Source of the DNA: a virus
Lineage: Duplodnaviria > Heunggongvirae > Uroviricota > Caudoviricetes
Direction: 5' to 3' (one strand)
IMG/VR virus record: IMGVR_UViG_638341082_000007
Location: 1 to 27,928 of that record
Length of the DNA: 27,928 nt
This document shows positions 18,557-19,865 of this stretch, in pieces. How positions within the stretch are numbered: position 1 is the stretch's first letter; each line of letters starts with the position of its first letter. The position numbers and the translations under genes are program-made. The notes under the pieces are model-generated. The model did no database searches and had not been told where the DNA came from. It worked only from the letters and a program-made list of their open reading frames with translations.

Positions 18557-18709
18557 TTATTCAGATTTACGCAGTAAAGGCCGGAGCACGACCAGCGCCA
18601 TCACCACCAGCACACCATCTGCCAGCACCGACATCAGTCGTCCGGTGAAATCAACCACCACTACCAGAAACAACAGGATGACAGCCAGCACAAGGCGCGC
18701 ACTTTTCAC
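18557..18709 (-). CDS. Possible small hydrophobic protein (50 aa) between TerB-like gene and holin
   Basis: Manual translation (GTG start overlapping the TerB stop) VKSARLVLAVILLFLVVVVDFTGRLMSVLADGVLVVMALVVLRPLLRKSE; single TM helix; below the ORF-track cutoff. Confidence 0.3.
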   Translation of the reverse strand: MKSARLVLAVILLFLVVVVDFTGRLMSVLADGVLVVMALVVLRPLLRKSE

Positions 18710-19131
18710 AGGTACTGCTCCAGCGGCAACTGCAGCGCCTGCGCAATTTTCTTCAGTTGCGCTTCTTCTTCCTGAGCGATACCGTCCTGGTCAGCGATAT
18801 CCAGACACAGGCACAGCACATTAACTGCATCATCAGTACCGGCAACATCAGCCAGCTGACGAAGAGCTTCGGCATTGGCAGAACGCGGCGACGCTTCATA
18901 ACGGGCGCGGATATTTGCACTCATTTGTGCAATCTCACCGGAGAACGGCGCAAAGGCAGGAAGTGCTGCAATGGTTTTTTCCAGTACCGCGATTTCTTTC
19001 GCGTCACAGGTGCCGTCAGCGTATGCAATGGAGTACGCGCCCCAGACGGTCGCCTCCACTGCGTCACGGTTCTCCATCTTCTTCACTTCGGTAATGGCCT
19101 TGCGGGTTTTCTTTTTGAAAATACCAAACAT
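18706..19131 (-). CDS. TerB-family (tellurite-resistance-like) protein
   Basis: 141-aa ORF; sequence character of TerB-like proteins annotated near holins in enterobacterial prophages (recognition, not searched). Confidence 0.7.
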   Translation of the reverse strand: MFGIFKKKTRKAITEVKKMENRDAVEATVWGAYSIAYADGTCDAKEIAVLEKTIAALPAFAPFSGEIAQMSANIRARYEASPRSANAEALRQLADVAGTDDAVNVLCLCLDIADQDGIAQEEEAQLKKIAQALQLPLEQYL

Positions 19132-19301
19132 CGTGACTTTTCCTTTTAGTGGGTGAGCCTGCGCCCGGGGGTGACCAGCCCACAGAGAAAGTCACACTGA
19201 CCATCCCGTAAGCTCACCCCTGAAAGGCTCTGTGGTTTTTTGATGTGCGCCGGGCGTGGCGCGGATATAAAAAAGGCCACGCAAATGCGCAGCCTGGTGA
19301 T

Positions 19302-19865
19302 TCAGAGATTTTCGAACGATTCCTTTTTACGACTCCAGCCTTCTATCTTCGGCAGAGATGCTTTGCCAAATCTCACATCATTCATCGACATTAAAATACT
19401 GTCTTTGATGAACTCGCATACCTCGTTAATTTTTGCGTCCGTATCTACGTGCGAAAATGTTCTGACCTGATAGCCATCAACTGAAATCGTTAAGTTATCG
19501 CCATCAAGCAACAGAATCTGTATGCCAACCTTCACGCTTGCAGACTGACGTGGGTTATCATCAACGACAGTCCACAAATTAAATGCAACACCATCCTGAA
19601 GCTCTACTCGCAAATCCTCAGGTTTTGTATTGTGCCCATTCCACAAAATAGAAACATACGGACGTTCTTTACCGTTAATATCGCGCCACTGTGAAGCTGG
19701 CAATTCCAGTGAATCTTCATAAACACTGACCAGCCTTTTGGCTGTATCCCGCAACCGCTGAATGTATTCCTGCTCAGCTTTCAGAATTTCGGCCCGTTTT
19801 GCCCTGATATCCGCATAAGTGACCACTGTATCAATCCTCTTATGAACAAATAAACAAGCCATCAT
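19302..19865 (-). CDS. Hypothetical cargo protein with N-terminal hydrophobic anchor (about 187 aa)
   Basis: ORF 19302..19973, but its first 17 codons lie inside the tRNA-Arg gene; first ATG downstream of the tRNA is at 19863-19865 (MMACLFVHKRID...); occupies the position of stx in Stx phages. Family not recognised. Confidence 0.5.
   Translation of the reverse strand: MMACLFVHKRIDTVVTYADIRAKRAEILKAEQEYIQRLRDTAKRLVSVYEDSLELPASQWRDINGKERPYVSILWNGHNTKPEDLRVELQDGVAFNLWTVVDDNPRQSASVKVGIQILLLDGDNLTISVDGYQVRTFSHVDTDAKINEVCEFIKDSILMSMNDVRFGKASLPKIEGWSRKKESFENL

Follow-up and report, generated by a model that had tools for sequence, protein, structure and literature searches.

We analysed a 27,928-nucleotide (nt) stretch of viral DNA (IMG/VR record IMGVR_UViG_638341082_000007, Caudoviricetes; hereafter the window), and in particular the three open reading frames (ORFs) at positions 18557-19865. 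With a probability of about 0.6, this interval consists of two independent accessory modules of a lambdoid prophage rather than of one three-gene system. The first module is a one-gene cassette whose product, called ORF174 here, belongs to the PHROG family phrog_5091, and the second is a homologue of the tciA-tciB pair of phage P1, encoding a TerB-domain protein and a small hydrophobic protein. An earlier reading of the sequence (the original prediction) had treated the three genes as one set that could act in superinfection exclusion or defence. The ORFs themselves exist as it had delimited them, all on the minus strand, between a tRNA-Arg gene and a cassette of two holins and an M15 endolysin. 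The RefSeq annotation of an E. coli chromosome with 99.9% identity to the window also has all three as coding sequences, under the names ‘hypothetical protein’, ‘tellurite resistance TerB family protein’ and ‘DUF3927 family protein’. The elements of the two modules and their immediate borders are as follows.

19892-19911, minus strand: intrinsic terminator hairpin after tRNA-Arg (terminator scan; fold -15.5 kcal/mol, z -4.5)
19269-19886, minus strand: moron cassette (promoter-like site, ORF, terminator), a clean 618-base-pair (bp) indel relative to E. coli 025542-1 (locus L005)
19864-19891, minus strand: sigma-70 promoter-like site TTTTCA-16 nt-TATTAT (consensus scan, 9/12 matches)
19302-19865, minus strand: first ORF in its ATG reading, 187 amino acids
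19302-19826, minus strand: ORF174 (phrog_5091 family), 174 amino acids from the GTG at 19826
19274-19295, minus strand: the cassette's own intrinsic terminator, AGGCTGCGC-ATTT-GCGTGGCCT followed by T6 (-14.9 kcal/mol, z -3.2)
18706-19131, minus strand: tciA homologue, a 141-amino-acid TerB-domain protein
18557-18709, minus strand: tciB homologue, a 50-amino-acid DUF3927 protein
18470-18556, minus strand: intergenic stretch from tciB to the holin start, folding into two terminator-type hairpins in tandem (terminator scan and RNA folding)

The separability of the two modules is seen directly in a sister prophage. E. coli 025542-1 has the same arrangement of tRNA-Ile, tRNA-Arg, tciA, tciB and holin with ORF174 missing; its tciAB DNA is 100% identical to that of the window, and the flanks differ by a few bases, which lie in the tRNA region. 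The indel is flanked by two copies of a 14-nt repeat, GGCCTTTTTYATAT, which occurs twice in the window against 0.01 expected occurrences. Its upstream copy, GGCCTTTTTCATAT (19883-19896), is formed by the 3′ side and T-run of the tRNA-Arg terminator, and its downstream copy, GGCCTTTTTTATAT (19265-19278), by the 3′ side and T-run of the cassette terminator. The guanine-cytosine (GC) content of the cassette is 43-45%, compared with 53-56% in tciAB and the lysis genes. The -10 hexamer of the promoter-like site overlaps the upstream in-frame ATG at 19865, and this hexamer and the spacing are kept in related loci despite differing upstream DNA.

Lambdoid phage morons are promoter-gene-terminator cassettes, as in HK97 and HK022. 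Given the clean presence or absence between near-identical prophages, the own terminator, the promoter-like site and the lower GC content, the ORF174 cassette is by its sequence a classic moron of textbook anatomy, its promoter being a consensus match only. It shares all four of these features with the HK97/HK022-type morons. It differs from them in that its cargo family is uncharacterised, and in that its terminator type accompanies the gene across unrelated backbones and coincides with the indel boundary.

The two modules also differ widely in abundance. ORF174 DNA is found in 27 of 5426 complete E. coli genomes, whereas tciAB-like DNA is found in 1659 of them (~30%), at up to 8 places per genome and often in several copies in enterohaemorrhagic E. 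coli. The co-occurrence analysis proposed with the original prediction gave a divided answer. On the one hand, the order ORF174-tciA-tciB is maintained at 12 of the 13 loci that carry close ORF174 homologues (at least 69% identity), with ORF174 directly 5′ of tciAB; at the remaining locus it runs straight into the holin. On the other hand, each module is also found without the other, tciAB in E. coli 025542-1, in O157:H7 prophages and in P1, and ORF174 at locus L023 and in every distant context except that of phage CharmingMan. The claim that the three genes form one set was thus not upheld, as ORF174 is a separable 618-bp cassette, differs from tciAB in frequency and has distant relatives without the pair. 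A commoner E. coli subfamily (P0144) has 42% identity to ORF174, and the contexts compared here are those of other family members.

Looking further afield, phrog_5091 is a small family of Enterobacterales prophages. Distant ORF174 homologues occupy four other kinds of prophage slot, all without tciAB. A Yersinia prophage carries one between Q and the lysis genes, and in E. coli prophages they follow the lysis cassette. In P2-like phages of E. coli and Morganella the homologues adjoin the portal gene in the gpA-gpQ region, which is an anti-phage hotspot of such phages (PMC9122126; PMC13586616). In prophages of Xenorhabdus, Providencia and a metagenome assembly they lie after antirepressor genes or between tail genes. 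A terminator follows the stop codon within 4-47 nt in every family member examined (9 distant loci), and in 6 of these 9 relatives it is of the type AAGGYCRC-loop-GYGGCCTTTTTTAT, as in the window, at 17-26 nt past the stop. In phage CharmingMan the ORF174 relative is only 27% identical, but conservation extends over the terminator, the tciA leader and TciA (89%). This pattern, in which the ORF has diverged while the terminator and tciA are kept, points to divergent alleles exchanged at the same joint. A DNA search of complete E. coli genomes with the CharmingMan allele gave no match. As a separate observation, the Yersinia enterocolitica prophage with a distant ORF174 relative just after Q carries, after its lysis cassette, a gene of the Acb2/Tad1-hairpin family (locus L010, 7395-7631), a sponge family directed against CBASS (cyclic oligonucleotide-based anti-phage signalling system) and Thoeris.

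Overall, this is what would be expected of a mobile cargo that consists of one gene and is moderately constrained. A more specific proposal is that phrog_5091 could be an unrecognised single-gene phage-competition cassette, for defence or exclusion or for counter-defence, which hops between accessory hotspots of unrelated temperate phages (the lambdoid Q-lysis gap, the post-lysis slot, the P2 gpA-gpQ hotspot and the antirepressor-adjacent slot) with the conserved terminator sequence as its recombination joint. We regard this proposal as somewhat improbable.

The first gene had been described as an anchored 187-residue protein with a hydrophobic N-terminal segment and no recognisable motif. Its start codon is likely the GTG at 19826, 13 codons downstream of the ATG at 19865 that RefSeq and the original prediction use, and translation from this GTG yields 174 amino acids. 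The phrog_5091 profile aligns from residue 14 of the 187-residue reading, conservation among 16 close homologues starts at the same residue, and the N-terminus of most of the 123 family representatives recovered by an exhaustive profile search corresponds to the GTG position. A strong Shine-Dalgarno sequence, AAGAGGA, lies 8 nt 5′ of this GTG. Between the window and E. coli strain C5, 5 of the 13 extra residues are identical, and the protein body is ~70% identical. The first 19 residues of the 187-residue reading have a mean Kyte-Doolittle value of 0.65, with at most about 5 consecutive hydrophobic residues, and the highest 19-residue mean anywhere in the protein is 1.11, so that no hydrophobic segment of membrane length is present. 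With either start the N-terminus cannot, on these values, anchor the protein, because the 13-residue extension is too short and too weakly hydrophobic and lies outside the PHROG profile and most homologues.

The other part of that description fared better. Searches of Pfam, NCBIfam, PADLOC and PDB, made with the single sequence and with a 63-member profile, returned nothing informative for ORF174, no enzyme-like motif was found in it, and a literature search for phrog_5091 was without result. The domain and structure searches suggested as a check of the original prediction thus placed the protein in phrog_5091 and gave no structural or lysis assignment. A structural or lysis role gained no support, as the sole match to a virion-protein PHROG had an E-value of 0.009 and no aligned stretch, and homologues sit in varied slots. 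The possibility of a spurious ORF was likewise ruled out by a ratio of nonsynonymous to synonymous substitution rates (dN/dS) of 0.17-0.28 against five to six diverged copies, by a confident AlphaFold 2 fold and by the 123 family clusters.

ORF174 is predicted to be a soluble, mildly acidic alpha/beta protein (isoelectric point, pI, 5.3) of ~20 kDa. The AlphaFold model has a mean predicted local distance difference test score of 82.7 and a predicted template modelling score of 0.75. In the predicted fold, a helix of 36 residues at the N-terminus is followed by an antiparallel sheet of 7 strands and a C-terminal helix, and the tail (residues 151-174) is disordered. The nearest known structures, at the level of fold only, are type III secretion chaperone or YbjN-like proteins and FP-domain alpha/beta sandwiches. 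Some homologues are frameshifted in the disordered tail, and among the IMG/VR contigs L022-L028 a number of copies have their reading frame broken in two near residue 30 or near residue 155, so that part of the family may be decaying or have alternative C-terminal tails.

The second module was recognised by homology to a pair that already has a name in P1, a fact that the original prediction had overlooked. TciA of the window is 85.8% identical to P1 TciA at the amino acid level (tblastn) and 80.5% identical at the DNA level, and TciB is 46.8% identical to P1 TciB (tblastn). In PHROGs, TciA is assigned to phrog_632 (5e-64) and TciB to phrog_1470, ‘TciB-like’ (9e-23). The label ‘TerB-like’ given to the middle gene holds, as TciA matches the Pfam TerB domain PF05099 above its gathering score (32.2 bits against a cut-off of 24.4, with residues 11-57 aligned only). 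Most of the close TciA homologues listed carry a precomputed hit to the same domain. A confident AlphaFold 2 model shows the all-helical TerB fold, as found by a fold search; a sequence search of PDB returned only chance-level polynucleotide phosphorylase hits and matched no solved TerB structure. In TciA a basic N-terminal tail (residues 1-20, pI 10.3) precedes the TerB core, which is acidic (pI 4.2), has six helices and contains two D-G...E motifs. It is 75-96% identical across many enterobacterial genera, and its dN/dS of 0.03-0.08 indicates very strong purifying selection.

The ‘small hydrophobic ORF’ proved to be a DUF3927 protein (PF13064, 49.7 bits against a cut-off of 25, 3.6e-13, residues 4-48), with two hydrophobic segments linked by a conserved VDFT motif and an aspartate in the second segment. 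In Pfam and PHROGs its sole hits are DUF3927 and phrog_1470, with no match to holin or antiholin families. In the literature searched, DUF3927 came up in two papers only, both times in passing. The GTG start of tciB overlaps the tciA stop codon (GTGA) in the window, in O157:H7 and in CharmingMan, and the corresponding junction in P1 is TGATG. This overlap is kept in the O157:H7 prophages even though TciA is just 40% identical there, and its conservation argues for coupled translation and joint function. A TerB-DUF3927 fusion protein (P0230), present in one assembly, looks like a frameshift and was given little weight.

Several known systems can be compared with this pair. P1 tciA-tciB(-tciC) shares the PHROG families, the gene order, the start-stop coupling and the proximity to phage tRNAs including tRNA-Ile2(CAT). 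The P1 pair, however, belongs to the ban operon, which is under C1 control, and has tRNA genes around it, whereas the pair of the window lies in the lambdoid late region before the holins. P1 also has a third small membrane gene, tciC, while the window has no equivalent of it: the 87-nt spacer contains two terminators instead and no ORF. Pairing in the first hairpin of this spacer is kept in CharmingMan through compensatory changes. In other lambdoid prophages, Pas small RNAs are located directly 5′ of the holin (bioRxiv 10.64898/2026.05.13.724894); Rfam gave no hit in the 18470-18556 spacer. As a further observation, tciAB adjoins phage tRNAs including tRNA-Ile2(CAT) both in P1 (locus L002, 2644-4304) and in lambdoid prophages, whose backbones are unrelated, and the tRNAs and tciAB may travel together.

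TciA also resembles the TerB protein of the terZABCDE operons, which are linked to tellurite resistance, phage inhibition and colicin resistance, in its domain family (PF05099), all-helical fold and two acidic D-G...E repeats. The partner of that TerB is TerC, whereas the partner of TciA in the window is a 50-residue DUF3927 protein, and none of the other ter genes (terZ, A, C, D, E) was found in the window, either in the ORF list or in the RefSeq annotation of the identical region. TerB proteins have been described as amphitropic, and the validated defence systems Dionysus, Shango and Bunzi combine TerB proteins with membrane components (bioRxiv 10.1101/2025.09.30.679545). As in the window, a TerB-domain gene (DinB, SngA and BnzA, respectively) adjoins a gene for a membrane protein on a mobile element. 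The partner genes of these systems are absent from the window, however, and TciB is far smaller than DinC, a pore-forming protein with four transmembrane segments. The pair is not a member of Dionysus, Shango or Bunzi.

A possible mechanism can be outlined for both modules. The soluble alpha/beta protein of the moron at 19269-19886 would act by binding a protein partner. Because its relatives occupy slots where such genes accumulate, ORF174 may serve competition between phages or between phage and host. For the module at 18557-19131, we infer that TciA and TciB form a membrane-associated complex. All three genes would be transcribed late, as they lie downstream of Q, by the logic of lambdoid biology. 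The Q-antiterminated late transcript would be the source of the pair, with read-through from a tRNA promoter as a possible second one. The two terminators before the holin would stop upstream transcription safely in the lysogen, and low expression of tciAB in the prophage state is possible. In line with this proposal, TciA and TciB would act on the inner membrane during phage development, where they might buffer a disturbance of ions or of the proton-motive force, or block incoming phages or pore-forming colicins. Our best reading of the pair, held tentatively and with less than even confidence, is a membrane complex that would protect or monitor the inner membrane as the phage develops, for instance when depolarising insults or incoming phages threaten it. 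A role in competition or defence is possible for either module.

A strong promoter-like site lies just 5′ of tRNA-Ile2(CAT), at 20234-20207 on the minus strand (TTGAAA-16-TATTAT, a 10/12 consensus match). It suggests Q-independent transcription of the phage tRNAs and possibly of downstream genes via read-through.

There are several points that weigh against the two-module reading or its details. First, the immediate 5′ position of ORF174 relative to tciAB, at nearly all close loci and in CharmingMan, leaves room for a functional link between the modules. Many ORF174 homologues also have an in-frame start 11-14 codons further upstream, so that the 187-residue product is possible. The cassette promoter is a 9/12 match only, and such matches are not enriched in the region (10, against 7.7 expected from shuffled sequences). 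Additionally, PADLOC-DB v2, searched at E-values up to 0.1, has no model that matches the three proteins, the distant ORF174 relatives or CharmingMan TciA. Finally, plaque formation by P1 does not require tciA, tciB or tciC, as judged by CRISPR interference (PMC10695390).

Among the alternatives, the one that survives best concerns the first module. Instead of serving defence or exclusion, ORF174 could counter host defence by inhibiting an immune protein of the host stoichiometrically, to the benefit of the phage in lytic growth; we consider this unlikely.

For the second module, a further hypothesis is that TciA and TciB regulate the lysis timing of the adjacent two-holin cassette in the manner of an antiholin or holin modulator. 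The pair lies immediately 5′ of the holins in the late operon, TciB is a small membrane protein with two segments, and class II holins and antiholins are similar to TciB in size and layout. In P1, however, the pair is found among tRNA genes in the ban operon, with no lysis gene in the stretch examined, and in O157:H7 prophages other genes and an insertion sequence element separate it from the holin. In the window, the two terminators insulate tciAB from the holin, neither Pfam nor PHROGs places TciB in a holin family, and one tciAB type pairs with different lysis cassettes. Since the pair is unlinked to lysis genes in P1 and the O157 prophages, a dedicated role in lysis timing is less likely than the membrane complex proposed above, and we find it rather implausible.

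The two remaining alternatives fare worst. That the TerB-like gene is a lysogenic-conversion gene for tellurite or colicin resistance is suggested by its TerB family assignment and by database names such as ‘tellurite/colicin resistance’, but those names were given in the P1 annotation ‘by homology’ and a consensus scan found no promoter-like site directly 5′ of tciA; tellurite resistance is unlikely because the other ter genes are absent, and we judge the whole reading very improbable. Equally improbable is a single superinfection-exclusion or defence system with TciA as membrane sensor, the small membrane protein as effector and an anchored 187-residue partner: the recurrent order ORF174-tciA-tciB, even with the diverged CharmingMan relative, and the example of Dionysus speak for it, but ORF174 is missing from a sister prophage with otherwise near-identical flanks, tciAB is ~60 times commoner in E. 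coli genomes, the distant relatives of ORF174 occupy other slots by themselves, a terminator lies between ORF174 and tciA, and ORF174 has neither a membrane segment nor a PADLOC match.

Read as two modules, the locus is an ordinary moron or accessory region of an E. coli prophage, and both modules belong to known kinds. The sole moderately novel element is the phrog_5091 cassette family, an uncharacterised cargo that apparently moves between the hotspots of phages and is present in the P2 defence hotspot as well. Few accessory pairs of enterobacterial temperate phages are as widespread or as strongly conserved as tciA-tciB, a pair named 20 years ago and still uncharacterised. Near-isogenic prophages with the cassette (AST240-type) and without it (025542-1-type) exist naturally. 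The value of the locus is that of a clean candidate for phage-challenge and membrane-physiology work, and not that of a new kind of system.

The wider neighbourhood agrees with the placement of the genes, in the original prediction, between the tRNA cluster and the lysis cassette, in the accessory slot that lambdoid prophages have from Q to the lysis genes. At 99.9% identity the window matches E. coli O166:H15 chromosomes and related human isolates; it is a lambdoid prophage with its late genes on the minus strand. In order of transcription these are Q, tRNA-Gly(CCC), a methyltransferase remnant, tRNA-Ile2/Met(CAT), tRNA-Arg(TCT), the three ORFs, a Phage_holin_8 holin, a 3TM holin (PF05449), an M15 peptidase, an HNH endonuclease, terminase and the head genes, with the second holin and the peptidase identified by Pfam. 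The principal neighbours are as follows.

22194-22946, minus strand: Q-type antiterminator (Pfam Antiterm, 1e-51)
20099-20174, minus strand: tRNA-Ile2/Met(CAT), upstream of the three ORFs
19925-20001, minus strand: tRNA-Arg(TCT), upstream of the three ORFs
18077-18469, minus strand: first holin of the lysis cassette, outside both modules (Pfam Phage_holin_8, PF16931, 1.7e-23)

An Rfam search of the interval gave tRNAs only, with sub-threshold hits at chance level. The window contains nine isolated N characters (17365, 17579, 17618, 17881, 18305, 18335, 18425, 27704 and 27852), seven of them within 17365-18425, a stretch holding the holin and endolysin genes, and none within 18557-19865.

Several further features were noted upstream. 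The 155-amino-acid ORF at 20357-20824 (minus strand) looks like a chimera: towards the N-terminus it resembles PHROGs of unknown function, whereas over residues 105-153 it resembles the C-terminal end of type II DNA methyltransferases. RefSeq marks a pseudogene at this place. E. coli strain C5 has an intact methyltransferase in the same slot (locus L004, 5550-6596). A 129-amino-acid ORF at 21588-21977 (plus strand), antisense to the late operon, has a signal-peptide-like N-terminus and lies in an island of 29-33% GC between Q and tRNA-Gly; it has no match in Pfam, PHROG, NCBIfam or PADLOC and may be a further moron with a secreted product. In the early region, Rfam detects a sok antitoxin RNA at 24604-24779 (minus strand, 120 bits), and hokD is annotated at the matching position of the identical RefSeq region, which gives a hok/sok module in the early region of this prophage.

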